64,000 nt of DNA. Source: Alphaproteobacteria bacterium (GTDB lineage Bacteria > Pseudomonadota > Alphaproteobacteria > CALKHQ01). Below, piece by piece: positions 17,988 through 42,966 of this stretch. Made by a program: the position numbers and the translations under genes. The stretch spans positions 1,728,001 through 1,792,000 of the forward strand of contig CBDDFZ010000001.1 of assembly GCA_965227515.1 (NCBI GenBank), in the 5' to 3' direction. Numbering within the stretch: the first letter of the stretch is position 1; every line of letters begins with the position of its first letter. The notes below the pieces were generated by a model. That model was not told the DNA's origin and did no database searches. It saw only the letters and a program-made list of their open reading frames with translations.

Positions 17988-18557
17988 TGTGTTCCCCCTA
18001 GTTCGTCGGTTGCGTAGGCCTTCGCCCTCTCCCGTTTCAGTCTCGGAAGCCGGAAAGCACGACAATCGCCAAAGGTTAATCCAAGGGACGAGTTTTTGTA
18101 ATGAATTTTACATATTTTTACATTGCAATCGTTTTCAGGTTTTTCAGTGTTTCTTAGAAACCTTCTAGATCTTACGGAGACACGTTATGGTGGTTGAGTC
18201 TCTCAAGCATCCCGACAGCTTAATCTTGCTCGGTTCGAAAGACTTGGCAGCGATGCGTCCGTGCGAACGATTTAGAGTTTGAGGGCGTCTACCTTTGCAC
18301 ACATCCAGGTGAAGAGCTCGGAAATGGACCAGGTGAGCATCATACGGATCGACCAGCGGGTGGTGTCGGACCGTGGTGACGGATCAACTGCGCAACGACG
18401 TATGCGACGATCTGCTTTGAGCTGGGCCGAGGTGTATCTTTTCGAGCCGTTGTCCGCCGGGTGCGGTTGCTGTAGCGATACCTGTTCGCTTAGACTCATA
18501 CGCACACGGGCTCCGACCTCCGATCATTGGATCAGTCTGTGAAGGGATGGGGTGCGA

Positions 18558-20588
18558 ATGGCAAGTGTAATCGATGGTGTGGCAACGCTTGCCGCTGCTT
18601 ATCCTGGCTTGATCCCAACGCCTGTGGGAAACAGTTCCAGCAGCGCGGCAACGATGCCGAAACGGCGGGATGTGTTGGACGATGCGGGGCAGACACCTGA
18701 TAGCCTGTCCGACCTGCTAGCGCGCCTCGCTGAAGCACAGGCTGGAGCCTGCCGCATGTCTGACGTCTTGGGCCTGTTCCCAAGAGTATCGGCGGCAAAG
18801 CTATGGGACGACCTTCTGCGGTTCCTGCGAACGGAAGACTCAGATTCTGGCGATGACACGGGCGCAGCCGCGTTTTTCACCAAGACCGATACCGCGCGAT
18901 ATTTCAGGCTCTTTTCGACGCGCGCGCCGATGGTCTTGCCTCTGCTGCGAGCGGCGGATGGCCTGCCACCCACCATATGCGTCCCAAACCTGATGCCGGG
19001 CGACCAGACACCACAAGGTGTGCTTTCCGGGACTTGGGAACGTAGCTTAGCCGGCCCCGCTGGCATGCTGTTGCATGCGATGTTGGGCGGATGTGCGGAA
19101 GTTGCTGAATGCCTCGGGCATGGAATCGACCCCGATGCCGAACGTGCGTCGCACACCCAACGACAGCCTACAGATGCCTACGCCAACGCTTTGCAAGCAT
19201 GTGGGTATGCAGGACAGGCCGACCTCGAGCACGGACTGCCGGGAGCCGTTTGCGCTGGTGTGATTGTCGAGATACTCGAACTAGGAAGGAGTTCGTCTGA
19301 GTCCAGCTCGGAGCGAAAGGCTGCTCGAGGCAGAATGCGGCCTCTACTGAGCGATCTGCTCGACATGTGTGATCACCTCGCAATGGCGGACGGGGATGCG
19401 GCACTGGCATGCGCGGCCGACTATGCAGCCAACGGTCGAGGTGCAAGAGCTCGCAATCTCATAAGCCGCTGTGTTGTCCTCTATCCAAACGACCCTGACG
19501 TGCTGGCTCAACTGGCAGCACAGCAGCAGGAGACAGGCAGGGAGGACGAGGCGATTGAAACCTATGAGAAAATTCTTTCACTTGTCCCTGGCCATACCGT
19601 TGCACATGTCGGTCGCGGTGACCTCTATCTCAATCAACAACGGTTTGAACACGCGGCCGATGATTACGAAAAAGCTCAAGTGAATGCGGCGCCCGGGGAA
19701 GAGATTGAACAGCGCGGTAAGCTGTTAATTGAGTTGTCCAGCGCATACCGAGAGGCAAAGCAAAATGATGCAATGCCTACAGTGACTGTCAGCGACGACG
19801 AGTTTGCCACAGGGAAGTGGCATCCCGCTCGGTTGTCACTGGCACTGAATATGTTTCGACAGTATGGTGCGCTGAAGATCGCCAACGCATTCGATGTTGA
19901 CTTGCTCACCGCATGCAATCGCTACTTTGTCAAACGCTATTCATCGTATTTCGACCGTGGATCGAAGTCGGACGCCCTCAATATTGGAGACAAGAGATAT
20001 CAGATCGGAATCTCACTTGATGGAGCGTTCAACAACCCGGGCGTATATGCCAACAAGTTCGTATTGTCCCTGATGCAGGCCCTGTTGGGCGAGGATTTCG
20101 TCCTCGGGTGCACCGTTTGCGCCACCTCGATGCCCGGTGCAAAGGATCAGCACCTGCACAAGGATCATAAGTCATTGTTTTCCATGGATGCCGCGGGGGA
20201 GGCGGTAACACTGCCTCCATTCGCGGTGACAACAATGGTTCCGCTCGTGTCGCTCGACCATCGGATTGGCACCACTAGCGTCCGGAAGGGCAGTCATGTG
20301 CTTGGCAGCCGTGCGTCAAGAGATCTACCTTCACAAGAACCTTTGGTCCCGCTTGGGTCGTGCTTCCTGATGGATTTCCGGTTGTCGCATCAGGGTCTGG
20401 CCAACCAGACCAATACAGTGCGACCGATTATCAATATGGTGTACCAACGGCCATGGTTCTTCGATTCCAAGAACTTCACCAAGCACCCACCGCTCCACGT
20501 ACCCGAGGGCGAATTCAAGAAGGTGCCGTCGGAACACCGCCGGCTGCTGGAGTGGGGGACTCGGCCCGCCCCGCAGATTGCGATCTAG
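18558..20588 (+). CDS. TPR-repeat protein with C-terminal phytanoyl-CoA dioxygenase (Fe/2OG) domain
   Basis: TPR helices (EAIETYEKILSL.P), QHLHKDH (HxD), distal H in RLSHQGLAN, RP..NMVY. Confidence 0.8.
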   Translation: MASVIDGVATLAAAYPGLIPTPVGNSSSSAATMPKRRDVLDDAGQTPDSLSDLLARLAEAQAGACRMSDVLGLFPRVSAAKLWDDLLRFLRTEDSDSGDDTGAAAFFTKTDTARYFRLFSTRAPMVLPLLRAADGLPPTICVPNLMPGDQTPQGVLSGTWERSLAGPAGMLLHAMLGGCAEVAECLGHGIDPDAERASHTQRQPTDAYANALQACGYAGQADLEHGLPGAVCAGVIVEILELGRSSSESSSERKAARGRMRPLLSDLLDMCDHLAMADGDAALACAADYAANGRGARARNLISRCVVLYPNDPDVLAQLAAQQQETGREDEAIETYEKILSLVPGHTVAHVGRGDLYLNQQRFEHAADDYEKAQVNAAPGEEIEQRGKLLIELSSAYREAKQNDAMPTVTVSDDEFATGKWHPARLSLALNMFRQYGALKIANAFDVDLLTACNRYFVKRYSSYFDRGSKSDALNIGDKRYQIGISLDGAFNNPGVYANKFVLSLMQALLGEDFVLGCTVCATSMPGAKDQHLHKDHKSLFSMDAAGEAVTLPPFAVTTMVPLVSLDHRIGTTSVRKGSHVLGSRASRDLPSQEPLVPLGSCFLMDFRLSHQGLANQTNTVRPIINMVYQRPWFFDSKNFTKHPPLHVPEGEFKKVPSEHRRLLEWGTRPAPQIAI

Positions 20589-20606
20589 CGGGCTGCCGAG
20601 GCCGCC

Positions 20607-22166
20607 GTGCACGCCGAGATTATCGACGACTTCAGGAAACTTGAGAACCTGCGCGCGAACTGGGACGAACTCTATCGCAAGGATCCCGATGCGCAGCTAT
20701 TCCTGTCCTGGCCCTGGCTCTCGCATACATTTCGACGTCATCCAAAGCGCACATTTCTGATACTTGCCGTGCGCCCCGACACGCCTCGGGATCACTATCT
20801 TGCGTTCATGCCGTTGAGGCTAAGTTTGCGAAATGATGACAAGCTTGGAGGCTATTGCAACGAGCTCTACATGGCCGGCAACTACTGGGCGGACTATACG
20901 GGCTTCGTCGGCGACCCGGACCGTGACGCAGAAACCATACCGGCACTTGCAGCGGCGCTGAAATCTTTGTGTTGGAAGTCACTGCATCTTGACTTCCTGC
21001 ACATGTCGGAGGCCCGGACGGAAGGTTTGCTCGCTCAGTTCTCCGATGACACATTTCGGGTCGTTCGCCGGACCCGTGTCTCGCCGGTCGATGGCACCAA
21101 TTCCCTGATTTGTCCGTATATTGAGCTACCCAGTGAGTTCGATACTTACCTAGCCACCAATATGAGCGCTAACACACGGCAGAAATTCAGACGCTTTAGC
21201 CGACGTATCGATCAGTCGGACGTACTGGCTATCTCTGAGTCCAGCGCCCAGACCCGCTCGCGGGATCTTGACATACTGCGTCAGTTTTGGGTCGAAAAGT
21301 GGAGAACGCGAAAAGGCGACAGCACTGAGCGGCTTGGACGAAGATACGTCGATATTCTCGCGGCAGCAATGCGCGACGACATGGCCTATATTTGTCTGCT
21401 CTGGCGTGGTGATCAGCCATTGGGCGCGCTTGGCCACTTGATCGACTGGGAGAAGAAGTGCTTGATGTACTATGTCGCTGGTCGTGACGAAAAGGTCCAG
21501 GGCATTCCGATAGGCCTTCTTTTACATGGACACAGTATTCGGTGGGCGATTGAGCAAAAAATTGAAACCTATGATTTTCTTTGTGGTAATGAGTCCTTCA
21601 AGTATTCGTATGGTGTGCGAGAGCGTCAGATCAGGTGCTATGAAATCCGGACCAGGTCCGGATTCAACCTGCACGGCAGGCTCGACCCTCGCACAATGGA
21701 AAAAGCGCTGGAGCGTGCCACCCGGGCCCAAGACCGTGGGCGACTAAGCCGGGCTGAAGCCGGCTATCGGCAGGTGCTCGCAATCCGGCCCACCTCAGCG
21801 CGCGGTCTGCGCCGGCTCTCTCGCTTGCTCGTATCGCAGGGACGCTCGGCGGAAGCCGACGAATTTCTCGAAAGACTCGTTGAGTTGCGAGACAAGAGCG
21901 CGCTGGCGTGGGACATGCTTGGGCGGGTGAAGTTCGACTTGGGCGACTACAGGGAGGCTCGTTCATCGCTTATGCGGGCCGTCTCCCTCGGATCCGATGT
22001 ATCTGATGAGGCAGTCTCTTGTCTTGGTCGCGCCTGCCTGAGAATAGGCGATCCCAACGAAGCTGGTCGATGGTGCGATGTCTTGGCCGACCGTGCTCGA
22101 ACAAAAAACAGCATGTCTGCGCAGGCTCTTGCAGAAAACCTTCGTAATGAAATTGAACGTTCTTAA
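20607..22166 (+). CDS. CelD/BcsL-like GNAT acetyltransferase with C-terminal TPRs
   Basis: FLSWPWL, ADYTG, YDFLCGNESFKYSYG, TPR tail. Confidence 0.8.
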   Translation: MHAEIIDDFRKLENLRANWDELYRKDPDAQLFLSWPWLSHTFRRHPKRTFLILAVRPDTPRDHYLAFMPLRLSLRNDDKLGGYCNELYMAGNYWADYTGFVGDPDRDAETIPALAAALKSLCWKSLHLDFLHMSEARTEGLLAQFSDDTFRVVRRTRVSPVDGTNSLICPYIELPSEFDTYLATNMSANTRQKFRRFSRRIDQSDVLAISESSAQTRSRDLDILRQFWVEKWRTRKGDSTERLGRRYVDILAAAMRDDMAYICLLWRGDQPLGALGHLIDWEKKCLMYYVAGRDEKVQGIPIGLLLHGHSIRWAIEQKIETYDFLCGNESFKYSYGVRERQIRCYEIRTRSGFNLHGRLDPRTMEKALERATRAQDRGRLSRAEAGYRQVLAIRPTSARGLRRLSRLLVSQGRSAEADEFLERLVELRDKSALAWDMLGRVKFDLGDYREARSSLMRAVSLGSDVSDEAVSCLGRACLRIGDPNEAGRWCDVLADRARTKNSMSAQALAENLRNEIERS

Positions 22167-22476
22167 CAAAATGCAGGTTAATCAGGGAGGCTATTAGTCT
22201 TTTAATTGGTTATTGCTGGCCGATATTAGCGCTCGTGACTTTCTCGCTGGATCAGTCGACTGTGAGGTGCGCTCGGCGTTGGGATCTCAGGCAATCTGCA
22301 GGGCGTTGAACGCATATGCCAGCGATCTGGCGATGGCGCGATCGCCCGCCTGGTCGCCCACGAGATGGCCGGCACCGCCGGCCGCTGACGCCTGATTGGA
22401 ACAGAAAGTGTAACCGTTAGACTTTTCCACGCCCTGTGGAGTCTAACGGCCAGTCGGCTGCGGCGGCTATATCAAT

Positions 22477-22532
<56 letters not shown>

Positions 22533-22591
22533 TCAGAACAGTATTGAGAACAATGGCTTATCAATGAATTGTTGCGTCTGTGTCGCACACA

Positions 22592-23704
22592 TCATCCGAC
22601 CAGCGCGAGTTCCGCCGCATCGAGGCGTTCCTGGTCGCGGCCTTCGTCAGGCCACAGGTGGGCATACAGATCCATGGTCATGACGATGGACTCGTGACCG
22701 AGCCGGCTCTGGACTTCCTTCTCGCGGTAGCCCTGGTGGATGAGCCACGAGGCATAGAAGTGCCGCAGGGCGTGCAGGCCATACTTCGGCTTGCCGTCTT
22801 TCGTCAGGCCGGCTTCGATCTGCATCGGATCGAAACCGCGCTGGCGGATGTTGGCGTAGGATTCGACGTTACCCTTGCCGTTCGGAAACACGAGGTCCAG
22901 ACGGCTGGCTGGGCACCGTAGCTTCCATTCCTTGAGAGTGTTGCTGACGAGCTTGCCGATGGGAATGTCGCGAAAGCCGGCTTCGGACTTCGGCGCACCA
23001 ATGGTGCCCCATTCGTCTGCCCGCTGCCGTACATGGATGACGCGATCTTCCGCGTCTTGCCAGCGCAGGGCGCGCAACTCGGACGCGCGGAGGCCCGTCA
23101 TGGCGGCGACTACGACGAATGGACGCCAGCGGTCGGACGCAGCGGCGATGAGCTGTTGAACCTCAGCCATCGTCGGAGGGACCACCCGTTTGCGGTGCCG
23201 CTTTGGCACGTCGATAGTGGTCTTGCTGGCGACGTTCTGTCCGACCAGGCCACGACGTTGCGCGTCGTACAAGACTGACTTGAGGCTGGTCAGCACCTTG
23301 CGTGCCATTGGCCGCGAGTGCTTTTCCAAGAGCCGGTCACGAAACGCCTCTGCATCCGGCGCGGTGAACTGAGTCAATCGAGTGCTTCCAAGCTCCGGCG
23401 CGATGTGCAGACGGACGTGGCGACGATACGCCACCAGCGTGTTGCGCTCGCGCCCTTCGGCTTCCAGGCGAGCCAGCCATAGGTCGGCGGCTTCCTGAAT
23501 GGTCTTCGACGCACCATCGGCTACGTGGGTACCGCGACGCACATCGACGTGGGTCTGGCTCGCCCACGCGTCCGCGTCCTTCTTCGTGGAGAACGTCTTG
23601 AGGCGGCGCTTGCCCTGTCCGTCTTTGTAGTCGACAACCCAGGCCGTCCGATCCTTGCCACCGCTGGACCATTTCCGCTTTCGAACTGCCACGACCGCCT
23701 CCAT
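22592..23704 (-). CDS. Tyrosine recombinase/integrase
   Basis: TGLRASE, HALRH, LGH, DLYAH: catalytic R, HxxR, H and Y intact; N-terminal arm-binding region. Confidence 0.95.
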   Translation of the reverse strand: MEAVVAVRKRKWSSGGKDRTAWVVDYKDGQGKRRLKTFSTKKDADAWASQTHVDVRRGTHVADGASKTIQEAADLWLARLEAEGRERNTLVAYRRHVRLHIAPELGSTRLTQFTAPDAEAFRDRLLEKHSRPMARKVLTSLKSVLYDAQRRGLVGQNVASKTTIDVPKRHRKRVVPPTMAEVQQLIAAASDRWRPFVVVAAMTGLRASELRALRWQDAEDRVIHVRQRADEWGTIGAPKSEAGFRDIPIGKLVSNTLKEWKLRCPASRLDLVFPNGKGNVESYANIRQRGFDPMQIEAGLTKDGKPKYGLHALRHFYASWLIHQGYREKEVQSRLGHESIVMTMDLYAHLWPDEGRDQERLDAAELALVG

Positions 23705-23803
23705 TGGTTACGTCGCATTCCCATATTGTTGCAAATACTCCCTGTGTCAATGGTCGTCGCCAGATGAGCGCCGAAAAAAATGTCTGCGTGCCGCAGTTAA
23801 TGC

Positions 23804-24178
23804 TTGCCAGCGGGAAAAAATGTGGGCATCTTCAACGCGGTCCCGAAGTGCGCCCGCGCTCCGGGATTATTTGTGCCCGAACTTCAGGGAATATCAACCG
23901 CAACGGGAATGACCCGTTGACACCCATCCGAAAAGTGAGGTAACACCAACTCGTTCCCGAAGTGCGCCTAAACGGTGGCTTCGGGTTTGTTGTTTTCGGC
24001 CCTCGCGCGGACTCAACGTCCGCTAGAAAAAGCCGTTGACAGCCATCCGAAAATTACTTACCTGAACGTCGGGCCCGAAGTGCGACTGCATTCCGGGCCT
24101 TTTTCATGCCCGCCCGGCCGCCGTCGGCGCGGGCTTTTTCATACCCGCCCAGCATCCCGCTGCGGCGGGTTTTTTTTG
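23804..24178 (+). promoter_or_regulatory. Three tandem sigma70-like promoter + CCCGAAGTGCG hairpin units, then two more terminator hairpins
   Basis: TTGCCA 23804, TTGACA 23917 and 24036, each 38-39 nt before CCCGAAGTGCG (23842, 23956, 24074); each motif opens a stem-loop followed by a T-rich tract. Confidence 0.7.
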
Positions 24179-24195
24179 TCCGAACGAGGTGAACC

Positions 24196-24405
24196 ATGAC
24201 CGACACGCTGGGTGACGATCTGCTCCACGGCGTCAAAGCCATCGCCGCATACATCGGCGAGAGCGAGCGCCGCACCTTCTACCTGCTTGAGCGCAACATG
24301 CTGCCCGCCACGAAGCTTGGCGCACGGTGGGTGTCCCGCAAGTCCGCTATCGCCAAGCGGTTTGACCTCGATGGCGACCAGCGGGAGACGTGCAATGCAG
24401 CCTGA
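24196..24405 (+). CDS. Excisionase/AlpA-like DNA-binding protein
   Basis: DLL.G.KAIA.YIG...R.FYLL....LPA.KLG.RW pattern, GAGG RBS, divergent from integrase. Confidence 0.75.
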   Translation: MTDTLGDDLLHGVKAIAAYIGESERRTFYLLERNMLPATKLGARWVSRKSAIAKRFDLDGDQRETCNAA

Positions 24406-24574
24406 TCTGATTGCCAGGTCGATTATCCGTCGTTGGCGCGAAGGGTTGCGCGGCGATGAACTCCACCTGGCCGTACGCGCGGATTTTCCGGATTGTCCGT
24501 CGGAGGTCTACGGCGCTGCTGCGGCTGCTGCTTGGGCAGAGATGCGAGGTGCGACCAGCGATGATGCGGCCTGA
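24395..24574 (+). CDS. Small hypothetical protein
   Basis: 59-aa ORF overlapping both neighbours. Confidence 0.45.
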   Translation: MQPDLIARSIIRRWREGLRGDELHLAVRADFPDCPSEVYGAAAAAAWAEMRGATSDDAA

Positions 24575-25256
24575 AACGAAACCGCCGCCTCCGGTTGGCG
24601 GAACCGGGGCGGCGGTGAAATGGAATTGGCTTGGCGGCTCAAATTCCGACACCGAACATACCGCCACCGCCGCAGATGTTCAACTGCCAGTCGACTTGCA
24701 CCACGAGTTGGCCATCGCGCAGCGCCTTGCAGGGCGATATGGCCTGGACAACAAACTTCAGGCCTACGGCATTACCCCTGCCGACCAGATCGAAACCGAT
24801 GTGATAGCAGTCGACCGCATCCTAGTCGGCGCCGGGCGGTACTCCCCACTTCCCCATCATTTGCCTACAGACAGGTTGAGCCGGCCATCCGAGTTGTGGT
24901 GCCTCACCCCGATCCGTTCTCCAGCGGGCGAGGTCTTCAACGTGGTGGCATGGCGGCCGAACAGTCGCCAGACTTACGTGCGGATGCGCTGGCCGGCGCT
25001 ACTGGGCTGCGGCATCGGAGACGATCCCATCGACCGCGCCCTGATCTGTGACGAGCCGCTGGTCGTCTACGGCACAGTCGCGGCGTGGCACAGGCAGGCG
25101 CATGGCCCTGGTGTCGTGTGGTTGAACGACGACGTGTCGGAACTGTGGGGTGTCGACCGCGCCCTGACTGATGACATGGAGACGTTGCGCAAGCTGCGGG
25201 TCGCAGACGTTGACGCGCGGTTCATTGCTGCGGAGGTGGATGCCCATGCAGCATGA
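24561..25256 (+). CDS. Hypothetical protein, possibly a degenerate primase-like domain
   Basis: P....G...VVAW....LLG....PL.V......W......GVV pattern recalled from prophage replication genes; directly upstream of helicase. Confidence 0.45.
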   Translation: MMRPETKPPPPVGGTGAAVKWNWLGGSNSDTEHTATAADVQLPVDLHHELAIAQRLAGRYGLDNKLQAYGITPADQIETDVIAVDRILVGAGRYSPLPHHLPTDRLSRPSELWCLTPIRSPAGEVFNVVAWRPNSRQTYVRMRWPALLGCGIGDDPIDRALICDEPLVVYGTVAAWHRQAHGPGVVWLNDDVSELWGVDRALTDDMETLRKLRVADVDARFIAAEVDAHAA

Positions 25257-26304
25257 CAATTCGGCGCGGTGGGAAGCGGCGAGCCCCTATGCCGGCCTGA
25301 CGCTCAGCCTTGATGCGTGGGCCGCACGCGATGTGCCTCCACGGCGCCTGTTGCTGGGCGATATCTTCTCAGCGACGACCCGGGCCATGCTGGTCGCGGA
25401 CACCGGCATCGGAAAGACGCACTTGGGGTTCGCGTTCGCCTTCGCAATGGCCGCTGGCGAGCCCTTCTGCCATTGGGAGGGGCATGAGCCCGCGAAGGTG
25501 CTGATTGTCGACGGGGAGATGAGCATCGGGCTCATGAAAGAACGCCTCGCCGATGCCGAGCGCCGGCTTGGTATCAGGCCGCCCGATCTGCATTGCGTCT
25601 GCCGCGAGGAAGCGGAGCAGATGCCTGCGCTGGACACGCCGGAAGGCCAGGCATGGATGGACGGCTTAGTCCAACACCTTGGTGGCATCGACTTCCTGAT
25701 CCTCGACAACATCATGAGCCTGACGTCTGGGGATATGCTCGACCCGGAAGGCTGGAAGCCGGTCACGACTTGGATGCGCGCGCTTACTGCCCGCCAGATC
25801 GGTTGTCTGTGGATCCACCACACCGGCCACGACGGCAGCCGCAGCTTCGGGACCAAAACTCGCGAATGGCAACTCGACTTGGTGATGGTCGGTGAGAAGG
25901 TGGACGATCTCGCAGCCGATATTGCGCTCAAGGTTACGTTCAAGAAGGCCAGACAGCGCACGCCAGCGACGCGGGAAGACTACGAGACGACCACGCTACG
26001 GCTGACTAAGGACATTTGGACCAGCGACAACGCCGGGCAACGACAGACAGGTAGGGTGTCACCAGCCGGGCTCAAATTCAAAGATGCCTTGGCCAACGCC
26101 CTGTCGCTTCCTGCTGCCGAGCACTTCAACGGACAGCGCGCCGTCACCTTCGATGTCTGGAGGAACGAGTGCGAGCGAATGGGCCTGATCGATGGCCAGG
26201 ACAAGCCCCACAGCGCGCGAGCCCTGCTCTCAAAGTATCGGCGGGAGTTGGTCGCAGCCAACGTTGTGGTCTGCGAGAACGACCTGGTTTGGATGGTTTC
26301 ATGA
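25246..26304 (+). CDS. AAA_25/RepA-like (SF4) replicative helicase
   Basis: Walker A ADTGIGKT, VDGEM, ILDN, IHH; GGAGG RBS. Confidence 0.85.
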   Translation: MQHDNSARWEAASPYAGLTLSLDAWAARDVPPRRLLLGDIFSATTRAMLVADTGIGKTHLGFAFAFAMAAGEPFCHWEGHEPAKVLIVDGEMSIGLMKERLADAERRLGIRPPDLHCVCREEAEQMPALDTPEGQAWMDGLVQHLGGIDFLILDNIMSLTSGDMLDPEGWKPVTTWMRALTARQIGCLWIHHTGHDGSRSFGTKTREWQLDLVMVGEKVDDLAADIALKVTFKKARQRTPATREDYETTTLRLTKDIWTSDNAGQRQTGRVSPAGLKFKDALANALSLPAAEHFNGQRAVTFDVWRNECERMGLIDGQDKPHSARALLSKYRRELVAANVVVCENDLVWMVS

Positions 26305-26419
26305 CCAGCGCTGAAACCATGGCGAAACCATGGGGCGAAACCATGCGAAACCGCCCTGAAACCATAGTGAAACTGCGGCCTTCGTTGCGCGCAACCATAA
26401 GCGAAACCACCGCAACCGG
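26293..26419. repeat. Iteron cluster, putative replication origin
   Basis: GAAACCA(T) and variants at 26313, 26324, 26337, 26347, 26358, 26369, 26391, 26403, 26412; inverted copy at 26293. Confidence 0.7.
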
Positions 26420-26637
26420 TCCCTTATGGGACCGTTGCAGTTTCGCAGGCCTGTTGATGGCGGGGAAAGAGCCTCTGCAAACCACATCGGGCCACGCGCG
26501 CGAAGGTCTACCAGCGTGTGTTGTTCTGCCGCCTTGTTGCGAAAAGGGATATATTATCCCCGTGTCAGTCGTTGCTTTTCGTTGGGTTTGTGGCATATTG
26601 TTGCGGATGTGTCGCATGAGCCACGAAGGAGGGCCGC

Positions 26638-26826
26638 ATGGCCAGCACGACAGTGAGATACGAGGCTGACGCGGTGTCGATAAAGATCGGCAGCGCGGAC
26701 GCGGGGTATGACGTTCACAACAACCTGACCAGCCACCGTGACCCGGTGCTGCGGACGATTGCGCAAGAGTACGCCACGAACGGCACCACGGCAGGTGTCG
26801 TGACGATCACGGCGCAGGCGGGTTGA
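26638..26826 (+). CDS. Small hypothetical protein, first gene of putative late operon
   Basis: Strong AAGGAGG RBS, 62 aa. Confidence 0.6.
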   Translation: MASTTVRYEADAVSIKIGSADAGYDVHNNLTSHRDPVLRTIAQEYATNGTTAGVVTITAQAG

Positions 26827-26828
26827 CG

Positions 26829-27059
26829 ATGGCCAAGATGATCGCCTGCGTCGTTGACGACCAATCGGAGATGAAGGTGTTGCAGGGCCTGCCGGGCGGA
26901 TGCTGGCGCGTCAGCATGGACGTTCCCGCCGGTGGCCTGCACGGCTTGATTGGCGCCCATGGCAGGGGGCCGCTGCGGCAGCACTTCGCCGAAGCTGACT
27001 ACGGCATTGGCAAGACCGAGACGCCTGCCGAGCGCAACAAGCGGCTTGCCGGTCGATGA
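26829..27059 (+). CDS. Small hypothetical protein
   Basis: ATGA overlap with next gene. Confidence 0.5.
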   Translation: MAKMIACVVDDQSEMKVLQGLPGGCWRVSMDVPAGGLHGLIGAHGRGPLRQHFAEADYGIGKTETPAERNKRLAGR

Positions 27060-27736
27060 GCGAGACCCCCGCCGAAGCGCAAGAGGCGCTTATCGACGCC
27101 GATGTCGAGGCGTTCCTTGAGAACAAGCCCGCCCCGACAGAGGACCTCGCGGAGTTCGAGCACGACGACCCAACTCCTGGCCTTGCGCCTGGCGTTGAGG
27201 GGCAGAGCCCGGAGTCCCTGCGCAACCTGACGAGCTACTTGTCCAGCACGTTGGGCGACGACGTGCCGACGCCTGCCGAGTTCGCCAAGACGGACCCGGC
27301 CCTTGCGGGCAGCCTCAAGCGGGCCTGGGGCGGCGACTACGACCTGAACGTCCGGTTGGTGCAGTCGGCATTGTCCAGCCTTCCTCCGGCACTGGTGAAC
27401 GCTGGCGTGAAGGCGGGGCTGGACAAGGATGTTGGCCTGTTGTCGGCCCTGGCCAAGCGGGAGCTATCGGCCCGCCGCCAGACGGCATGGCCTGGAATCT
27501 ACGCAACCCCCGCCGACCATGGCGAAGTTGGTGAAAGGAGTGATGGAGTGGAACCCGAGGAATTGAGTGCAACGGAGCGTGCCCGGCTGGAGCGCGCCCG
27601 TCAGAAGGCTGTGGGGCAGTCCATAGATGCAAACAGGCGCGGCGACCGTGACGAAGCCAAGCGGCTGGCCGATATCGGCATGCGGTTGGCGACGCGGCTG
27701 TACGGCGATAAGCCGGCGGATGGCAGCTTGGGCTGA
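27056..27736 (+). CDS. Putative capsid scaffolding-like protein
   Basis: Acidic N-terminus, LKRAWGGDYDLNV motif reminiscent of podovirus scaffolds, basic helical C-terminus. Confidence 0.45.
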   Translation: MSETPAEAQEALIDADVEAFLENKPAPTEDLAEFEHDDPTPGLAPGVEGQSPESLRNLTSYLSSTLGDDVPTPAEFAKTDPALAGSLKRAWGGDYDLNVRLVQSALSSLPPALVNAGVKAGLDKDVGLLSALAKRELSARRQTAWPGIYATPADHGEVGERSDGVEPEELSATERARLERARQKAVGQSIDANRRGDRDEAKRLADIGMRLATRLYGDKPADGSLG

Positions 27737-28170
27737 TGGCCCGTTACCGCTGGAATCCTCGCATGGAAGCGTTTGCCATTGCCTATGCAGCCGGGAATTC
27801 CGGGGCTGAGGCCGCGCGGCAGGCGGGCTATCGGGGCGGGCGGTACCAGGCACGGGAACTGCTCAAGCGCGACGATGTGAAGGTTCGCATTGCCGAGATC
27901 CAGGCAGAAACGGCCAAGCGGAACGAATTCACCGTCGACAAGTTGATGGAGCAGCTCAAGGAAGACCGGGAGGCGGCACGGGAAGCCGGCCAGCACAGCG
28001 CCGCCGTGAAGGCGAGCGAGTTGCAGGGCAAGCTGAGTGGCCACCTTGTCGACCGGGTAGACGCGCGGGTGCAGATGGACACTCGCACCGACGAACAGAT
28101 CGAGGCATCCATTGCAGCGAAGATGCGTCAGTTGGGGCTGGCCGCAAAGGTCATCGAACATGACGGCTGA
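27736..28170 (+). CDS. Terminase small subunit
   Basis: EAFAIAY..GNSGAEAARQAGY...LL...VK.RI.E; AAVKASELQGKL.G. Confidence 0.85.
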   Translation: MARYRWNPRMEAFAIAYAAGNSGAEAARQAGYRGGRYQARELLKRDDVKVRIAEIQAETAKRNEFTVDKLMEQLKEDREAAREAGQHSAAVKASELQGKLSGHLVDRVDARVQMDTRTDEQIEASIAAKMRQLGLAAKVIEHDG

Positions 28171-28942
28171 GGCGCTCAAGGAACTCGACGCCGAGCTTGC
28201 CGAGCTGGCCCGCCGCAAGGCCCGCCGCAAGCTATCCAGGTATCGACCCTATCCGAAACAGGCCGAATTCCATGCCGCTGGTGCCGAGCACCGCGAGCGC
28301 TTGCTGTTGGGGGGCAATCGATGCGGCAAGACCGAGGCCGGCGGCGCCGAAGTCGCGATGCACCTGACTGGCCGATATCCTGACTGGTGGAAGGGCAAGC
28401 GGTTCGGTGAGCCGATAGTTGCCTGGGCATCCGGCATCACGTCCGAGTCCACGCGCGACGTTCCGCAAGAGAAGCTGATTGGCCCGCCCGCCGACAGATC
28501 GTCCTGGGGCACGGGGATGATACCGGGCGATGCCCTGGGGCCGCACTCGATGGCCCGCACGGTTGCCGACGCGCTCGACCAGGTGATCATCAAGCATGTG
28601 ACCGGCGGCCAATCCATCCTGGGCTTCAAGACCTATGAAAAGGGCCGCGAGAAGTGGCAGGGCGCGGCGCTGCATTTGATTTGGTACGACGAGGAACCGC
28701 CCGTCGATATCTACAACGAGGGCTTGGCCCGGCTATCCGACAACCGCGGCATCGCATTGGCGACGATGACACCGCTGTTGGGCATGTCGGAAGTGGTGCG
28801 CGGCTTCATCCACCAGGACGTGGACGAGGGCGAACCCGAACTGGTTGACCCGCCGGGTTGGACCGAGGCCGATGACGACCCGATGGGCGTGAAGATCCCG
28901 CCGAAGCCGCTTCCAAGCCACTACCGGGTGCGGCGCCGATGA
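28160..28942 (+). CDS. Terminase large subunit, ATPase half (P22-like)
   Basis: PYPKQAEFH, GGNRCGKT, IWYDEEP, TMTPLLG. Confidence 0.9.
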   Translation: MTAEALKELDAELAELARRKARRKLSRYRPYPKQAEFHAAGAEHRERLLLGGNRCGKTEAGGAEVAMHLTGRYPDWWKGKRFGEPIVAWASGITSESTRDVPQEKLIGPPADRSSWGTGMIPGDALGPHSMARTVADALDQVIIKHVTGGQSILGFKTYEKGREKWQGAALHLIWYDEEPPVDIYNEGLARLSDNRGIALATMTPLLGMSEVVRGFIHQDVDEGEPELVDPPGWTEADDDPMGVKIPPKPLPSHYRVRRR

Positions 28943-29685
28943 CGAAACACGTCACCTTCCTGACGCTGGACGATGCCGAGCATTTCAGCCCGGAGGAACG
29001 CGAGCGCATCGCTGCGGACTACCCCGCCCACGAGCGCGAAGCCCGTGCCAAGGGCGTGCCGATGCTGGGCAGCGGCCGGGTTTTTCCTGTGGCCGAGGAA
29101 GGCATCACCTGCGCGCCGTTCAAGGTGCCGGACTTCTACGCCTGCATCGGTGGCATGGACTTCGGTTGGGACCATCCTTTCGGCGCCGTGAAGCTGGCCT
29201 GGGACCGCGACGATGACGTGATCTACGTGGCGCAGTGCTATCGGGCGCGCGAGGAAACTCCGGCCATCCACGTCGACGCCATCAAGCCCTGGGGACCGGC
29301 GATGCCCTGGGCCTGGCCGCACGACGGTCACCAGCACGACAAGGGCTCAGGCGAGGCGCTGGCGGGCGGATACCGCCGCCGGGGGCTCAACATGCTGCCT
29401 GAGCACGCGACCCACGAGGACGGCGGCTTCGGCACCGAGGCCGGCATCACTCAGATGCTGGAATACATGCAGGCAGGCCGCTTCAAGGTGTTCTCGCACC
29501 TGGCCGACTGGTTCGAGGAATTCCGCCTTTATCACCGCAAGGCCGGGAAGATCGTGAAGGAAGCCGACGACTTGCTGTCGGCAACGCGCATCGCCGTCAT
29601 GAGCCTGCGCTTCGCCAAGCCGCGCACAGCGGAAAGACGGCGACCAATGCCTACGCACTACAACATTGAACGGAGAAAGAGATGA
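28939..29685 (+). CDS. Terminase large subunit, nuclease half
   Basis: DDAEH...EREARAKG.P.LGSGRVFP, GMDFGWDHP, DDLLSATR; ATGA overlap with ATPase half. Confidence 0.9.
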   Translation: MTKHVTFLTLDDAEHFSPEERERIAADYPAHEREARAKGVPMLGSGRVFPVAEEGITCAPFKVPDFYACIGGMDFGWDHPFGAVKLAWDRDDDVIYVAQCYRAREETPAIHVDAIKPWGPAMPWAWPHDGHQHDKGSGEALAGGYRRRGLNMLPEHATHEDGGFGTEAGITQMLEYMQAGRFKVFSHLADWFEEFRLYHRKAGKIVKEADDLLSATRIAVMSLRFAKPRTAERRRPMPTHYNIERRKR

Positions 29686-30059
29686 CTACCAAAACGCTCG
29701 AAAAGCCGGCGGATCGTCCGCCGGTTCACCTGGGCAGGCAAGACATGGTTCGGACGGACACCAACGGGTCGTGCCCCTCCCACTGGACTTTGATGACCCA
29801 TGCGACGCCGGAGGAAATCTTGTCTCCGGGCTGGTTCGATAACGCCTATGGCGATGTTCTGTTTGTCGACGACGTGATACTCGCACTCTACGGGCCCGGC
29901 GAATTTGAGGCGCAGAAAGCCGGAAACCAGACTTGGCGCGGCGGCGCCAAGCCACACCAGCGCATGAAGCTGTTGGTGACCAATCGCGTGCCTAAGACCG
30001 AAAACATGGGCCTAGTCTCGGCATGGCACATCACGGTCGAGCCGTACGACGGTCCCTGA
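29682..30059 (+). CDS. Hypothetical protein
   Basis: 125-aa ORF overlapping both neighbours. Confidence 0.55.
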   Translation: MTTKTLEKPADRPPVHLGRQDMVRTDTNGSCPSHWTLMTHATPEEILSPGWFDNAYGDVLFVDDVILALYGPGEFEAQKAGNQTWRGGAKPHQRMKLLVTNRVPKTENMGLVSAWHITVEPYDGP

Positions 30060-32569
30060 TGCCGACGCAGGAGTGCATTCAGTCCGTCATTGATGCTTCG
30101 GGCGGTCGGCTTTCGGCCACCGAGGCCGCCGACGTTCTGGAGCGTATGGAGCATCGTCGCGCTGCGTTGCTGGCGTCCGGCAAGATCGATGGGCTGGACT
30201 ATCGCCTTCGAGAGCTGGCCTCGCAGGACGCTGACAGAGTTCGTATGGCGGCCGCTCTCTCAAGGAAGCACGCTGCGCTAAATGCCATCGTGCGAGACAA
30301 GACGGAGGGCGTGGTTGCGGCGCATATGGAGTCCGGTCTGTCACCGCAGCAAGCCGTCCTGGCCGTCCTGGAAGGCGTCAATGCCAATGTCCGCAACGGT
30401 CGGCTGAGCGTAGCGCAGTTGGTCGATGCGTATGAGGCCCGATATCTCACTTCGATGACGGCGGCGTTGAGCCGCGATGTGCCTCTTTGGGAGCGGAGGT
30501 TGCGTGACCGGGGCTTCCTGAATGCTGTGGTCCGCGAGATGTACGAACTGCGTGATGGGGGCCGCCCCGGCACTGTGGGTGACCCTGATGCAGCCAAGGT
30601 CGCCAAGATATTTGCAGAATACTCTGAGCTTGCGCGCCTTGAGTTGAATCGCCTTGGGGCGAACATCAGCAAGCTCGACGGTTGGGCCGGGCCGCAGTCG
30701 TATGACCCGCAGGCGCTGTTGCGGGCCGGACGGGACGCCTGGGTCGATGACATGATCGTCGAACTGGATCTTGACCGCACATTCGAGGGCCTGACGGCCG
30801 ACGATGCCCGCGCAGTGCTGCGCGATATCTGGCTCACGATCACCACCGGGCGCGACAACAGCCTGACGCCCGCCGAGCGGGGCGACTTCACCGGGCCGGC
30901 GAACGTGGCAAAGACGCTGAGCCGGCATCGGGTGTTGCACTACCGCGACGCGGATGCGTGGCTGCGGGTGCAGGAACGCTACGGGCAGGACCACATATTC
31001 GGCGCCATCGCCTCGCACCAGATGCGGGCCGCGCACCTAGCTGCGCAAATGCAGATGCTGGGGCCGAATCCCGAGGTGATGTTGGGCAGCCTGATGGAAA
31101 GCTTGGCGCGCCGGGTGCGTAACGACGCCAACATTCCCGCCGATCAGAAGTCCGGGTTGATCGATGACCTGAGCCTCGAAAACGTCGCCATCAAGTCCGC
31201 GATGGCGGAGATGCAGGGGCTGCACAACACTGTCGCGCCGGGTCGACGGGCATGGACAGCGGCTGCCGTCAGCTCGGCAATCCGGGCGGTGCAGACCATG
31301 GCCAAGCTCGGCACATCGGTGTTCGCCCAGATCAGCGACATCGGCCAGAGCACGGCGCAGCTGCGTTACAACGGCGTACCGATCCATACAGCCTATGAGA
31401 GACAATTCCGCCATGTGCTTGCCGGCCGCCCAACCAAGGAACAGCGTGAAATCGCGCATCTGATTGGTGTTGGCGCAAATGGCATCATCGATAGTGTCGC
31501 GGCGCGGTGGAATGTCGATGGTGGTTTACCAGGGCGCTTCACGCGAGCGGTCAACGGCTTCTTCAAGCTGAACGGCATGACGTGGCTGCAGAACTCTTTG
31601 GAGCGTGCCAATGCACTGATTCTGTCAGCCCACCTTGGCCGGCAAATGACCAAGGCATGGGATGCCGTCGACGCGGACATGAAAAATCAGCTCAACCGCT
31701 ATGGCATTGGAGAGGCCGAGTGGTCGGTTTTGCGCCAGGGCGATTACCGCACGATCGATGGTGAGCGTTACGTCACCGGCGATCGTGTGCGCGATATCCC
31801 GCTGGAAGCCATGGACCCGCTCATCGAAGGCAAGATCACCGAGTTGGCACGCATCCGGGCGCGTGACGACCTGGAAATCAAGCTGCGGACCTATCAGGTG
31901 GACCAGACCTTCTCCGGCATCATCCGACCATCGGCCCGGTCCCGCCGTTGGCTGCTGCGTGGCACCCAGCGCGGCACTGCTGTCGGTGAGGCGATGCGCT
32001 TCTTCGCCCAATTCAAAGGCTTTCCGACTTCGTTCACCGAACGGGCGCTTGGCCAAGCGTTCCTGGGCGGCACCGGCAGCCGTGGTGCGCAGGCGGTGAC
32101 CGTGGCGCACCTTATCGCAGCAACGACCGTGGCCGGCATGATCACCAACATCGTTTATGACTTTCTCAACGGATACGAGCCGCGCGACCCGACGGACCCG
32201 CGCACCCTCATTGCCGGGTTTGCCCGAGGTGGTGGGGCTGGCATCTTTGGCGACTTCCTGTTCGGCCAGGCCAGCTATGGCGTGGGAGCGCTTGAGGCGG
32301 GCCTTGGCCCGGTGGTTGGTGAGACCAGCAAGCTCTTGCGGCTGTGGTACGAGGCCCGAGAGGGCGATGCGGACTGGGCCGATGTGTTCCGCAGCCTGAC
32401 CAGTAACGTGCCAGGCCAGAACCTGTGGTGGTCGCGTTCGGCATTGGACATCATGATCTTGAACGAACTGCGCGAGGCGCTCTCTCCAGGCTACTTGAGA
32501 CGCCAGGAAGGCCGCCGGGAACGGGACTTTGGTCAAAGTCGGATATTGCCGGCCACTGTATGGAGATAG
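30059..32569 (+). CDS. Large internal virion/DNA-ejection protein of podovirus (epsilon15/BPP-1-like) type
   Basis: 836 aa; C-terminal QFK.FP, GGG.GIFGDFL, LGP, P..NLWW, E..SPGYLRR...R....GQ signature recalled from podoviral core proteins. Confidence 0.65.
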   Translation: MPTQECIQSVIDASGGRLSATEAADVLERMEHRRAALLASGKIDGLDYRLRELASQDADRVRMAAALSRKHAALNAIVRDKTEGVVAAHMESGLSPQQAVLAVLEGVNANVRNGRLSVAQLVDAYEARYLTSMTAALSRDVPLWERRLRDRGFLNAVVREMYELRDGGRPGTVGDPDAAKVAKIFAEYSELARLELNRLGANISKLDGWAGPQSYDPQALLRAGRDAWVDDMIVELDLDRTFEGLTADDARAVLRDIWLTITTGRDNSLTPAERGDFTGPANVAKTLSRHRVLHYRDADAWLRVQERYGQDHIFGAIASHQMRAAHLAAQMQMLGPNPEVMLGSLMESLARRVRNDANIPADQKSGLIDDLSLENVAIKSAMAEMQGLHNTVAPGRRAWTAAAVSSAIRAVQTMAKLGTSVFAQISDIGQSTAQLRYNGVPIHTAYERQFRHVLAGRPTKEQREIAHLIGVGANGIIDSVAARWNVDGGLPGRFTRAVNGFFKLNGMTWLQNSLERANALILSAHLGRQMTKAWDAVDADMKNQLNRYGIGEAEWSVLRQGDYRTIDGERYVTGDRVRDIPLEAMDPLIEGKITELARIRARDDLEIKLRTYQVDQTFSGIIRPSARSRRWLLRGTQRGTAVGEAMRFFAQFKGFPTSFTERALGQAFLGGTGSRGAQAVTVAHLIAATTVAGMITNIVYDFLNGYEPRDPTDPRTLIAGFARGGGAGIFGDFLFGQASYGVGALEAGLGPVVGETSKLLRLWYEAREGDADWADVFRSLTSNVPGQNLWWSRSALDIMILNELREALSPGYLRRQEGRRERDFGQSRILPATVWR

Positions 32570-32571
32570 CG

Positions 32572-32799
32572 ATGGACGATGAAGAGCTCGAACGCCGCCT
32601 TGACAGGCTCAGGAGGGCAAACTGGGATACGGACCTAGGCGCCGCCCGCTACATCGTTGAAGACATGGGCTTTGAGGATGCGCTTCGGATGGCGACCAAC
32701 GAATTGGAGCATGGCGCGCCCGATGAGCGCGAAACGTGGGAAGGCATTGTCGGGGCGCTGAACTACATGAAGATGCGCGGCGAGGCGCCAAAAGAATGA
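32572..32799 (+). CDS. Small acidic hypothetical protein
   Basis: GGAG RBS, ATGA overlap with next gene. Confidence 0.55.
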   Translation: MDDEELERRLDRLRRANWDTDLGAARYIVEDMGFEDALRMATNELEHGAPDERETWEGIVGALNYMKMRGEAPKE

Positions 32800-33338
32800 C
32801 AGCCGTGCGTGTCCGCGACCTGCCCGAGCGGCCTTTTCGGTATCGTGTCACCGGGTCATTCCGTGACCAAAAAAGCTTGCAGTGCCGCATTTCGATTGGA
32901 CGCCCGGACGAGCCGGACAAGTCGCGCATCGAGCTGGACGCGGTGCTCGACACGGGAGCTACATCCTGCATCATCCCTCACGAGATCGTAGAACGTCTGG
33001 GCCTGCGAAGTATCGCGAACAATATTCCTCTGAAGACGACTTCGCGGATTGAGAAGAAGAAAGCCTACGTGATTGGGTATGACTTTCTGGACAAAGAACC
33101 CATGCATGACACTTGGTCTGACAAAGCGCAGCGCTGGCGTCAGATCAATTCGGATGTCGCCACCTTTGCAAAGCACACTGGTGAGCTTTGCCGGCTTGAT
33201 GACCGATACGATGTCGTCACGGTGGCGCTGGGCGGCAACCGCCAGGGAAAGGGTGGGGAGGCTATGATTGGCCTGCGCAACCTTGCGCTCGGCGAGCTGC
33301 TGGTGAACAGAAATGAGACCTTCTCGTTCTGCTTCTAG
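32796..33338 (+). CDS. Clan AA (retropepsin-like) aspartic protease
   Basis: AVLDTGAT and C-terminal MIGLRNL motifs. Confidence 0.7.
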   Translation: MTAVRVRDLPERPFRYRVTGSFRDQKSLQCRISIGRPDEPDKSRIELDAVLDTGATSCIIPHEIVERLGLRSIANNIPLKTTSRIEKKKAYVIGYDFLDKEPMHDTWSDKAQRWRQINSDVATFAKHTGELCRLDDRYDVVTVALGGNRQGKGGEAMIGLRNLALGELLVNRNETFSFCF

Positions 33339-33391
33339 GTCGAGACCCTGCATGCCCCGGCCGGCACGGTTCATTTAGGGCGGTAACCAGA

Positions 33392-33715
33392 TTAGCTCCG
33401 CCATTGGCCGGTGCGCAGGTAGTGCCGTATCTCTCGCCTTCTCAGCCATCCCGCCATCTTGTCGCCAAGCAACCAACCGAGGCCGGCGGGCAGAAATATG
33501 CCGGGCAGGATTAATGCGACCGTGAGTTCCCGGCCCAGTGTATCGATTAGCCAGGCGTCAATAGTGCGCCCGAAAAAGAGCACCGCGCCAACCAGAACGA
33601 CTATCCCGATGCCAGTGATCCAGCGCACGCGCTCGCGAAGTACGGCCCGTGTTCCTTCGGGCATCGCCTTCGACGCATCCAGCCATTCGTCAAGGGTGTA
33701 GTCGGGTTGGCTCAT
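33392..33715 (-). CDS. Small membrane protein (2 TM)
   Basis: Two hydrophobic segments, basic C-terminus. Confidence 0.5.
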   Translation of the reverse strand: MSQPDYTLDEWLDASKAMPEGTRAVLRERVRWITGIGIVVLVGAVLFFGRTIDAWLIDTLGRELTVALILPGIFLPAGLGWLLGDKMAGWLRRREIRHYLRTGQWRS

Positions 33716-33825
33716 CTCGCGCAGGTTGACAGGCAATAGGGATCAGCGCAACGTAGAGCGGCCGAACAGGTGTTACCAGCACCTGCCCGGCCTAAGCACA
33801 ACCGACCTATAGAGGAGGTACGGCA

Positions 33826-34356
33826 ATGCCTGATGGCACGCATATCACATCCCTTACATCGCCAGCGATTCCAGAGTCCCTGGGCATTGAGAATGCCTTG
33901 GCCCTGGCAAGCGTCATGTTCAACGCCGGGCACGTCATCGACCAGTCGGACGATGGCGTGACCCTGGAGATCGTCGTGCCGTGGAGCGTCGCGGAACGAA
34001 TGTTCGGTTTCGACGCTGACCTGGAGGACGTGGAGGAAGACTGCGAGGACGAGGGCGCCCAATGCGAAGGGGAGGGCGAGACGTGTGAGGACGAAGGGGC
34101 GCAGTGCGATGACTGCGGCTGGCAGGAGGAAGGCGGTGAAGCGAGCCCAGTGGCAGCGGACGATCCCAACTATGACCAGGACTGTTACGGCAACGATCAC
34201 TACCGGATGGATGCGGGCCGGCATCGCGACCCGCCGCTGACCTACATTCCTAAGGTCATCCCGGAGGGCAAGACGCTGGTCATTCGCGGGCCGGGTGACA
34301 ATACCGAGCTGGTCGATAACGAGGTCATCGAGGCCGGTCGAAAGGTGGAGGGCTGA
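33826..34356 (+). CDS. Acidic hypothetical protein with CEDEGAQC repeats
   Basis: GAGGAGG RBS; Asp/Glu/Cys-rich centre. Confidence 0.6.
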   Translation: MPDGTHITSLTSPAIPESLGIENALALASVMFNAGHVIDQSDDGVTLEIVVPWSVAERMFGFDADLEDVEEDCEDEGAQCEGEGETCEDEGAQCDDCGWQEEGGEASPVAADDPNYDQDCYGNDHYRMDAGRHRDPPLTYIPKVIPEGKTLVIRGPGDNTELVDNEVIEAGRKVEG

Positions 34357-34358
34357 TC

Positions 34359-34688
34359 ATGTCGCTTAGAGTGGATGCCAACCTGCTAGACAGCACGATT
34401 GCCGACCAGCACGAGGGCCTGCAGGTGATGTTTTCAGAGCTTGAGAACGCGAACTGCGCTCTTGCGGGGGACAAGCCGGACGCCTACCGGGCCAACGTCG
34501 CCGTGCAACACTGCCTGTGGATCTGGGGCGTCTTGCACGACTATAACCGCCAGCTTCGTGGGGCAATCGATGCGGCCAGCAAGGAAGGTCGGGCCGGGCT
34601 ACGCGAGGAGCGACAGGCCGAAGTTGACAGGCTGAGGCGGGAACTGGCCGATGCCGAGCGCAACCTGGGCTTCGTCACCGACGACTGA
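34359..34688 (+). CDS. Hypothetical coiled-coil protein
   Basis: GGAGG RBS, helical, followed by terminator. Confidence 0.55.
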   Translation: MSLRVDANLLDSTIADQHEGLQVMFSELENANCALAGDKPDAYRANVAVQHCLWIWGVLHDYNRQLRGAIDAASKEGRAGLREERQAEVDRLRRELADAERNLGFVTDD

Positions 34689-34712: not shown

Positions 34713-34740
34713 GGCCCCGCTTCGGCGGGGCCTTTTTGTT
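34713..34740 (+). terminator. Intrinsic terminator
   Basis: GGCCCCGC-TTCG-GCGGGGCC-TTTTTGTT. Confidence 0.85.
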
Positions 34741-34876: not shown

Positions 34877-34959
<83 letters not shown>

Positions 34960-42890: not shown

Positions 42891-42966
42891 GACTGAAACA
42901 TCTTGACAGGGCTTGACCCTCTTAATCTGTATGGACCGAAGACGCGTGGGAGGGAGGGAAAAGTCA

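Follow-up and report, generated by a model that had tools for sequence, protein, structure and literature searches.

The DNA analysed here, referred to as the window, comprises 64,000 nucleotides of contig CBDDFZ010000001.1 from an alphaproteobacterial assembly (GCA_965227515.1, positions 1,728,001 to 1,792,000). Between the gene of a tyrosine integrase and the divergently transcribed gene of a 69-aa winged helix-turn-helix (HTH) protein, it contains an array of three repeated units, each with a candidate promoter, an invariant 11-mer and a terminator-like hairpin. The original prediction had described three units with a period of 113-119 bp, -35 hexamers 38-39 nt ahead of the 11-mer and a preceding AAC.(.)CG; sequence reading of 23400-24700 bore this out. 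The period was 113 and 119 bp when measured between the hexamers and 114 and 118 bp between the 11-mers. The features of the array and the first gene behind it are as follows.

23804..23877, plus strand: unit 1, with the -35-like hexamer TTGCCA (23804-23809), the candidate -10 hexamer CATCTT (23827-23832) and the 11-mer (23842-23852)
23840-23867, plus strand: hairpin of unit 1, -16.4 kcal/mol, followed by the poor T-tract TATTTGTG
23917..23997, plus strand: unit 2, with TTGACA (23917-23922), the candidate -10 hexamer TAACAC (23941-23946) and the 11-mer (23956-23966)
23956-23985, plus strand: hairpin of unit 2, -17.5 kcal/mol, with the 3' arm in another register and the T-tract TTTGTTGTTTT
24036..24104, plus strand: unit 3, with TTGACA (24036-24041), the candidate -10 hexamer TACCTG (24059-24064) and the 11-mer (24074-24084)
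24071-24100, plus strand: hairpin of unit 3, -19.5 kcal/mol, with a T5 run from 24100
24108..24139, plus strand: terminator 4, promoter-less, hairpin 24108-24134 (-20.5 kcal/mol) and T5
24143..24177, plus strand: terminator 5, promoter-less, hairpin 24143-24170 (-20.3 kcal/mol) and T8
24196..24405, plus strand: first operon gene, coding for the 69-aa winged-HTH protein of the excisionase/HTH_17 type

The window contains just three exact copies of the 11-mer CCCGAAGTGCG, at 23842, 23956 and 24074. With up to one mismatch allowed, seven matches were obtained where 2.95 were expected, and the three exact ones all belong to the array. The -35-like hexamers (TTGCCA at 23804, TTGACA at 23917 and 24036) precede the 11-mer by 38, 39 and 38 nt in units 1, 2 and 3, respectively, and AAC.(.)CG stands 5' of every copy. 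Units 2 and 3 have TTGACA[C/G]CCATCCGAAAA in common, a pattern found twice against an expectation of 0.03. In unit 1, the spacer of the candidate promoter reads GCGGGAAAAAA instead of CCATCCGAAAA, and all three spacers have only an A-tract in common. Three of the 15 TTGACA hexamers in the window (both strands) are located in the intergenic region between the integrase and HTH genes, two within the array and the third directed towards the integrase gene. The candidate -10 hexamers follow at a spacing of 17-18 nt, and the A at position 2 is kept in all of them. An inverted repeat, TCAAC(G)-N15-17-(C)GTTGA, was also seen in units 2 and 3 (23894-23922 and 24013-24041), its right arm overlapping the -35 hexamer, and small hairpins of unrelated sequence lie 5' of all three candidate promoters (23784-23796, 23901-23919 and 24006-24022).

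Folding showed that every 11-mer forms the 5' arm of a hairpin (-16.4 to -19.5 kcal/mol) with a variable 3' arm and a T-rich tract behind it, as had been predicted, the tract of unit 1 being poor. The two further hairpin/T-run elements expected ahead of the excisionase-like gene were found as terminators 4 and 5. These are 35-bp duplicates of one another (repeat family D3, 74%) with the pairing kept in both, and they are joined by TTTTTCAT, copies of which are located at 24100-24107 and 24135-24142. A permissive scan for hairpins with T-runs yielded 34 candidates on the plus and 25 on the minus strand (59 in 128 kb of both strands). The five consecutive plus-strand candidates of the array are packed into 340 bp and make up five of the eleven plus-strand candidates of the window at -16 kcal/mol or better; terminator 5 is the only one of them that a simple consensus scan reported as well. 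All T-runs of the array are on the plus-strand side, so that the five elements share the orientation of the operon behind them. The last T-run ends at 24177, followed by the ribosome-binding site (RBS) GAGG (24186-24189) and the ATG of the HTH gene at 24196. This leaves 18 nt between T-run and start codon, a gap in which promoter scans reported no promoter-like site and which offers no room for another promoter. Throughout 23700-24180, no reading frame has a bias in the GC content at third codon positions (GC3), unlike the flanking genes.

The conservation within the units is concentrated on the 11-mer. Aligning the three units gave 96 gap-free columns, 38 of them invariant; when the columns were shuffled 200,000 times, 158 shuffles reached an invariant run of 11. 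Pairwise identity amounts to 6/23 to 14/23 on the 5' side of the -35 hexamer, 18/38 to 26/38 from the hexamer to the 11-mer and 10/24 to 18/41 on its 3' side; outside the 11-mer the units are 26-68% identical. Units 1 and 3 fold in one register with 11 pairs, of which seven are invariant, three carry one-sided changes and one is compensatory (U-A to G-C), so that 22 of 22 cells are paired; the shuffle control for this pairing is powerless with two sequences (238/500). In unit 2, the identical 5' arm pairs in a different register with a longer, non-homologous 3' arm. As the 5' arm is invariant while the 3' arms change and still pair, hairpin formation and the sequence of the 5' arm are constrained separately. 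A plain terminator accounts for the hairpin constraint only and a plain DNA operator for the sequence constraint only. The statistics behind this are thin, as there are only three copies.

The array is part of a 12.4-kb island (12,400 bp between the repeat starts) that ends in perfect 56-bp direct repeats. Its further features are listed below.

22477..22532: attL, left copy of the 56-bp repeat, 100% identical to 34877-34932
22592..23704, minus strand: tyrosine integrase gene (Pfam Phage_integrase, 5.1e-20; phrog_1, 1.5e-73), likely start GTG at 23692
23722..23750, minus strand: candidate integrase promoter, TTGACA (23750-23745), 17 nt, AATATG (23727-23722)
23784..23796, minus strand: small hairpin with a T7 run, between the array and the candidate integrase promoter
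24395..34688, plus strand: rest of the operon, all genes co-oriented, including small open reading frames (ORFs)
24395-24574, plus strand: 59-aa ORF, overlapping the end of the HTH gene by 11 nt, with the Arg-rich N-terminal stretch IARSIIRRWREGLRG
ending at 25256, plus strand: ORF between the 59-aa ORF and the helicase-like gene
25171-26304, plus strand: AAA_25 helicase-like gene
27736-28170, plus strand: TerS
28112-28942 and 28939-29685, plus strand: TerL in two frames, ATPase part and nuclease part, overlapping at 28939-28942 (ATGA)
30023-32569, plus strand: 848-aa virion structural protein, resembling podovirus virion structural proteins at 27-31% identity
34713..34732, plus strand: intrinsic terminator at the operon end, 8 GC pairs and T5
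34877..34932: attR, right copy of the 56-bp repeat, which is the 3' part of tRNA-Phe(GAA) (34884-34959, minus strand)

The integrase, annotated in the source with 366 aa, is transcribed away from the array. Its candidate promoter combines a perfect -35 with a weak -10 hexamer, like the candidate promoters of the array. Apart from the integrase, all ORFs of the island with coding-type GC3 bias are on the plus strand, and the operon ends at the 34713-34732 terminator. Inside the operon, only one terminator-like site at better than -16 kcal/mol (29041-29081) comes before it. A hairpin of -27.5 kcal/mol was noted at 24582-24615 between the 59-aa ORF and the next ORF, with a T-tract on the minus strand only; it could be a stop for antisense transcription or an extra barrier on the plus strand. 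The GC3 bias of the 59-aa ORF is weak, and it may be no gene. Behind the split of TerL may be a mutational frameshift or a programmed one, or TerL may genuinely consist of two genes here.

The first gene of the operon had been called xis-like, which proved reasonable. The 69-aa protein has 980 HMMER relatives, and Pfam HTH_17 was matched by 28 of 41 aligned relatives. Its structural model had a pLDDT of 81.7, and the nearest folds by TM-score were the RdfS excisionase, P2 Cox, a PICI (phage-inducible chromosomal island) protein and a mycobacteriophage Xis, all at E > 0.2. A word-based protein search with the same protein returned the self-match only. The island thus combines an integrase, an AlpA/Xis-type regulator, a replication module and packaging genes within the ~10-15 kb and flanking att repeats typical of PICI-like satellites. 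This layout is that of a PICI-like phage satellite, from which we infer a satellite lifestyle; a prophage remnant is equally possible because TerL is split over two frames. Among the ORFs of the island, no repressor-like family was recognised (17 scanned against Pfam and 16 against PHROGs), and the same scans recognised no capsid or tail genes. The array had been placed by the prediction where a repressor gene would be expected. This expectation holds for Gram-positive PICIs. Gram-negative ones, according to excerpts of PMC6092414 and PMC11773190, have no known repressor; there, a helper function that has yet to be identified induces alpA, which goes on to stimulate its own expression.

Several known systems were compared with the array. 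Lambdoid Q and P. aeruginosa AlpA bind a promoter element, load on paused RNA polymerase and pass intrinsic terminators, which begin at +26, +54 and +247 (excerpts of PMC7969949 and PMC9371919). Q at PR'-tR' and AlpA at PalpB-tB and PPA0807 resemble the array with its candidate promoters in that one or more intrinsic terminators follow a promoter, ahead of the first gene of a long operon of phage origin. In these systems the operon is expressed by read-through, and sequence elements common to the target promoters set the specificity. The factor binds between -35 and -10 in such cassettes; in the array, units 2 and 3 carry CCATCCGAAAA in this position, and an A-tract is what all three units share there. 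The same promoter-then-terminator order was found here, with five hairpin/T-run elements from the candidate promoters to the first start codon. The array differs from these systems in having three tandem candidate cassettes plus two terminators instead of one promoter, in a hairpin that begins almost at the predicted +1, and in that the strongest conservation is in the 5' arm of the terminator and not in the promoter spacer. In addition, the pause element is not conserved, no Q- or AlpA-like protein was recognised, and the residues of P. aeruginosa AlpA are numbered to at least 142 as compared with the 69 aa of the local HTH protein.

Immunity of satellite P4 rests on the CI RNA, the sequences seqA, seqB and seqC and premature termination of the PLE transcript. 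P4 resembles the island, on the reading favoured below, as a satellite-type element without a protein repressor that is kept silent via termination in an untranslated leader before its replication operon. P4 relies on a single promoter and on a processed RNA that base-pairs with complementary boxes while the transcript is being made. In the island, a duplex scan found no complementary boxes beyond the 3' arm of each hairpin itself, no match of the CI/C4 type was obtained with Rfam, and the terminators look factor-independent. The array would work most like a termination gate of the Q/AlpA or P4 type, yet it lacks features by which either type is recognised.

With PICIs of the EcCICFT073 type, the island has in common an integrase, a small AlpA/excisionase HTH protein, primase/helicase and packaging functions, a size of ~12 kb, att repeats and the absence of a recognisable repressor (excerpt of PMC6092414, in which the HTH gene of EcCICFT073 and EcCIMP1 is described as induced by an unidentified helper function). 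In EcCICFT073, however, the integrase and HTH genes are co-oriented and the spacer between them has ACAAC-type repeats and no terminator-like site, while the island, which is unrelated to it in sequence, encodes TerS, TerL and a large virion protein. The gene layout is thus common with Gram-negative PICIs, the leader is not. The spacer of EcCICFT073 was seen to be full of (G/A)ACAAC-type direct repeats (17190-17255 and 17440-17490 of the fetched locus L083), which may be sites for a regulator or a recombination protein.

Taken as a whole, the array probably keeps the island silent until some factor permits read-through by RNA polymerase. Since terminators 4 and 5 are promoter-less and there is no room for a promoter before the first gene, the operon can be reached only by read-through of three to five terminators. 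This anatomy, with five co-oriented terminators, the last two promoter-less, and the 18-nt gap, agrees with the termination-gated switch offered as one option by the prediction; the helper-phage antiterminator that was to open it is conjectural. The reading we favour, with confidence somewhat short of even, is that of a default-off leader, with three promoters whose transcripts would end prematurely at five intrinsic terminators and with the 11-mer as recognition element for factor-dependent read-through. From the anatomy we infer promoter activity, start sites, termination in vivo and an antiterminating factor, which would act together as follows. Three promoters of the sigma-70 type (consensus -35, weak -10) would fire, starting transcription at the conserved CG some 3 nt ahead of the 11-mer, and transcription would terminate after roughly 34-44 nt, giving an RNA that is little more than the hairpin. 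Transcripts escaping the first stop would meet up to four more terminators ahead of the first, promoter-less gene. The operon with its excisionase-type HTH, replication and packaging genes would be expressed only once RNA polymerase has been made resistant to hairpins. The invariant CCCGAAGUGCG, at about +4 to +14 of the nascent RNA, would be the recognition element for the read-through factor, which might hold the 5' arm single-stranded or load onto the early elongation complex. Terminators 4 and 5 do not contain the 11-mer, so a lasting change to the polymerase would be required, which points to processive antitermination and not to local sequestration; Q and AlpA are precedents for this logic. 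The factor might come from a helper phage or from the operon itself; the latter would make the array a positive-feedback switch whose noise is damped by the terminator stack. Placed before a self-activating regulator, the stack would also suppress accidental firing.

In a more specific version, a helper protein or the island's own Arg-rich ORF (24395-24574) would read the 11-nt tag of the nascent RNAs and render the polymerase terminator-resistant, so that infection would be read out as antitermination instead of anti-repression. This version is rather unlikely. The 59-aa ORF was dropped as a candidate factor, as it has no relative in the only related locus with a comparable gene set (L033, see below) and its Atlas scores of 0.75-0.81 were below lead level. 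A search with the A5 profile, which bears on a cognate antiterminator protein, gave no PDB relative at E ≤1.

A number of results weigh against the default-off gate. The -10 hexamers are weak in all three units, and a consensus promoter scan reported no promoter in the array. A -10-like (nAnnnT) pause element between the -10 hexamer and the end of the 11-mer was present in unit 3 only (GAACGT) and is not conserved. The strand asymmetry in hairpin stability is small. A factor that merely sequesters the 11-mer would not pass terminators 4 and 5, which do not contain it, and the Pfam and PHROGs scans of the island's ORFs gave no gene resembling Q, AlpA, N or NusG. The remaining points come from comparative searches. 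Conservation in other elements, named by the prediction as a test, was not observed: searches of 80 related loci, phages, plasmids and EcCICFT073 revealed no homologous array. The related loci were collected by a scan of genome contigs with an alignment of the AAA_25 helicase-like protein; they are at most 53% identical and do not include the source genome. The exact 11-mer occurred in two of the 80, neither of which has an array. A covariance model of the units, crude in that the underlying MAFFT alignment misplaces the 3' arm of unit 2, scored 41.7-55.4 bits on the three units and at most 13.7 bits elsewhere in the window. In 1.28 Mb of related loci it reached at most 20.2 bits, the best match looking like coding sequence. 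In the 5 kb ahead of the helicase gene, terminator-like sites never numbered more than two within 400 nt in any of the 80 loci, and blastn of 23700-24200 against phages and plasmids gave no match. No terminator-like site was found in the 365-bp spacer between the integrase and HTH genes of EcCICFT073 (E. coli CFT073). The locus L033 (6555-11164), from a metagenome-assembled genome of Rhodopila sp., is the only fetched one with an integrase (52%), a small HTH (44%) and a helicase (37%); its genes are all co-oriented, a 238-aa ORF lies between integrase and HTH gene, the gene order is another one and there is no array.

How far these comparisons reach is limited by the sample. When 16 island proteins were searched with tblastn, the helicase was matched in all 80 loci, the integrase in 12 (23-52%) and the HTH protein in one. 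The loci therefore share mostly the helicase module and represent different elements, which makes them a poor test of array conservation. For the integrase (57-59%) and the helicase (60%, on contigs of up to 13.5 kb), the nearest relatives come from metagenomic sources.

Other explanations of the array have to account for the same repeats, hairpins and T-tracts. The three units may be genes for hairpin RNAs of ~34-44 nt acting in trans, either as immunity or decoy RNAs against a helper or through CCCGAAGUGCG as a seed, with the extra terminators insulating the operon. Each unit indeed has a candidate promoter and a terminator, short RNAs are plausible products, and the invariant block implies sequence-specific recognition. 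Tandem homologous small-RNA genes are known with OmrA/B, PrrF1/2 and LhrC1-5, and they resemble the array in their repeated units with own promoter and intrinsic terminator and in a shared conserved block. P4 provides a precedent for an RNA that replaces a protein repressor in a satellite; P4 immunity is mentioned in an excerpt of PMC10111431. The array departs from such genes in that its RNAs would be barely more than a terminator hairpin and in that it adjoins a promoter-less operon. The conserved block is the paired 5' arm in all three folds, leaving no single-stranded seed. Neither a target nor a family was found: duplexes at -15 kcal/mol or better numbered three on the mRNA strand of the island and three antisense, with 0-10 in four equal-length controls. 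An Rfam scan, proposed with the prediction, reported tRNA alone in the whole window at gathering scores and, for 23600-24300 at E ≤10, only unrelated families far below their cut-offs. There are no copies in the rest of the window, the 80 loci, phages or plasmids, and the two promoter-less terminators directly before a promoter-less gene are left unexplained. Of the predicted decoy or immunity RNAs of 40-50 nt, short RNAs of about this size thus stay plausible, while nothing supports a role in trans or one like that of the P4 CI RNA, and we consider this explanation improbable.

A protein, for example the island's own HTH protein, might instead bind the 11-mer and the conserved promoter blocks as DNA sites and repress or activate the three promoters, with the terminators overlapping by chance. 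The fixed distance to each -35 hexamer would suit this, as it puts the 11-mer at about +4 to +14, a frequent position of operators, and so would the spacing of 114-118 bp (~11 helical turns) and the inverted repeat over the -35 hexamer of units 2 and 3. P2 Cox and P4 Vis regulate promoters, and the first gene product is a winged HTH protein of the excisionase/HTH_17 type. AlpA of EcCICFT073, a protein of the same type, autoregulates (excerpt of PMC6092414). A DNA site, however, does not need pairing that is kept via a non-homologous 3' arm, the 11-mer is not palindromic, and known sites of the Cox/Xis type are closely spaced, which makes operators distinctly unlikely. Equally doubtful is a decaying tandem duplication in a degenerating prophage remnant, with no present role and an invariant block due to gene conversion or chance. 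The split TerL and the lack of recognised capsid and tail genes suggest that the island may be defective, the array was found in no related locus, and three copies allow thin statistics only. The att repeats, on the other hand, are perfect over 56 bp and the operon genes retain a strong GC3 bias. Pairing is kept in five of five hairpins, including one with a remodelled 3' arm, and invariance is confined to 11 nt within units that are 26-68% identical, the opposite of what gene conversion would leave.

Termination-gated operons are known from Q, AlpA, P4 and conjugative plasmids. Three putative promoter-terminator cassettes with an invariant 5' arm, set on two further terminators and apparently forming the sole visible control of a satellite-like island, were not found described in literature searches covering open-access papers and bioRxiv only. 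The array is real and unusual, but a single locus. For Gram-negative PICIs, the excerpts of PMC6092414 and PMC11773190 leave open the mechanism of helper induction. If the default-off gate is correct and opened by a helper, it would provide such a mechanism for PICIs of the Gram-negative type, showing concretely how satellites without a repressor sense their helper, and the cassette could serve as a compact and very tight off-switch. Should the array be no more than a local duplication in a decaying island, its wider significance would be small; this possibility stays because no homologous array was found.

Some further candidates were considered for the intergenic region and dropped. Integrase arm sites were discarded, as 1.3 kb separate the array from the att core. 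Alphaproteobacterial SOS boxes were represented by GAAC-N5-GAAC at 24182-24194 with the wrong spacing. Small minus-strand peptides contained ATGAAAAAG twice, without a usable RBS. A type III toxin-antitoxin system with ToxI-like repeats of ~36 nt does not agree with a period of 113-119 bp, a promoter-like element in each unit and an HTH gene as the next gene. Origin iterons, CtrA, sigma-54 and sigma-32 motifs and CRISPR-repeat-like RNAs were dropped on sequence reading.

The GC content of the window is ~0.66-0.70 with two exceptions. It is 0.56-0.57 at 18000-23000, next to the island, where genes with TPR, GNAT and PhyH domains are located, and 0.47 at 42-43 kb. These low-GC stretches (18000-23000 and 42000-43000) may be further foreign DNA.

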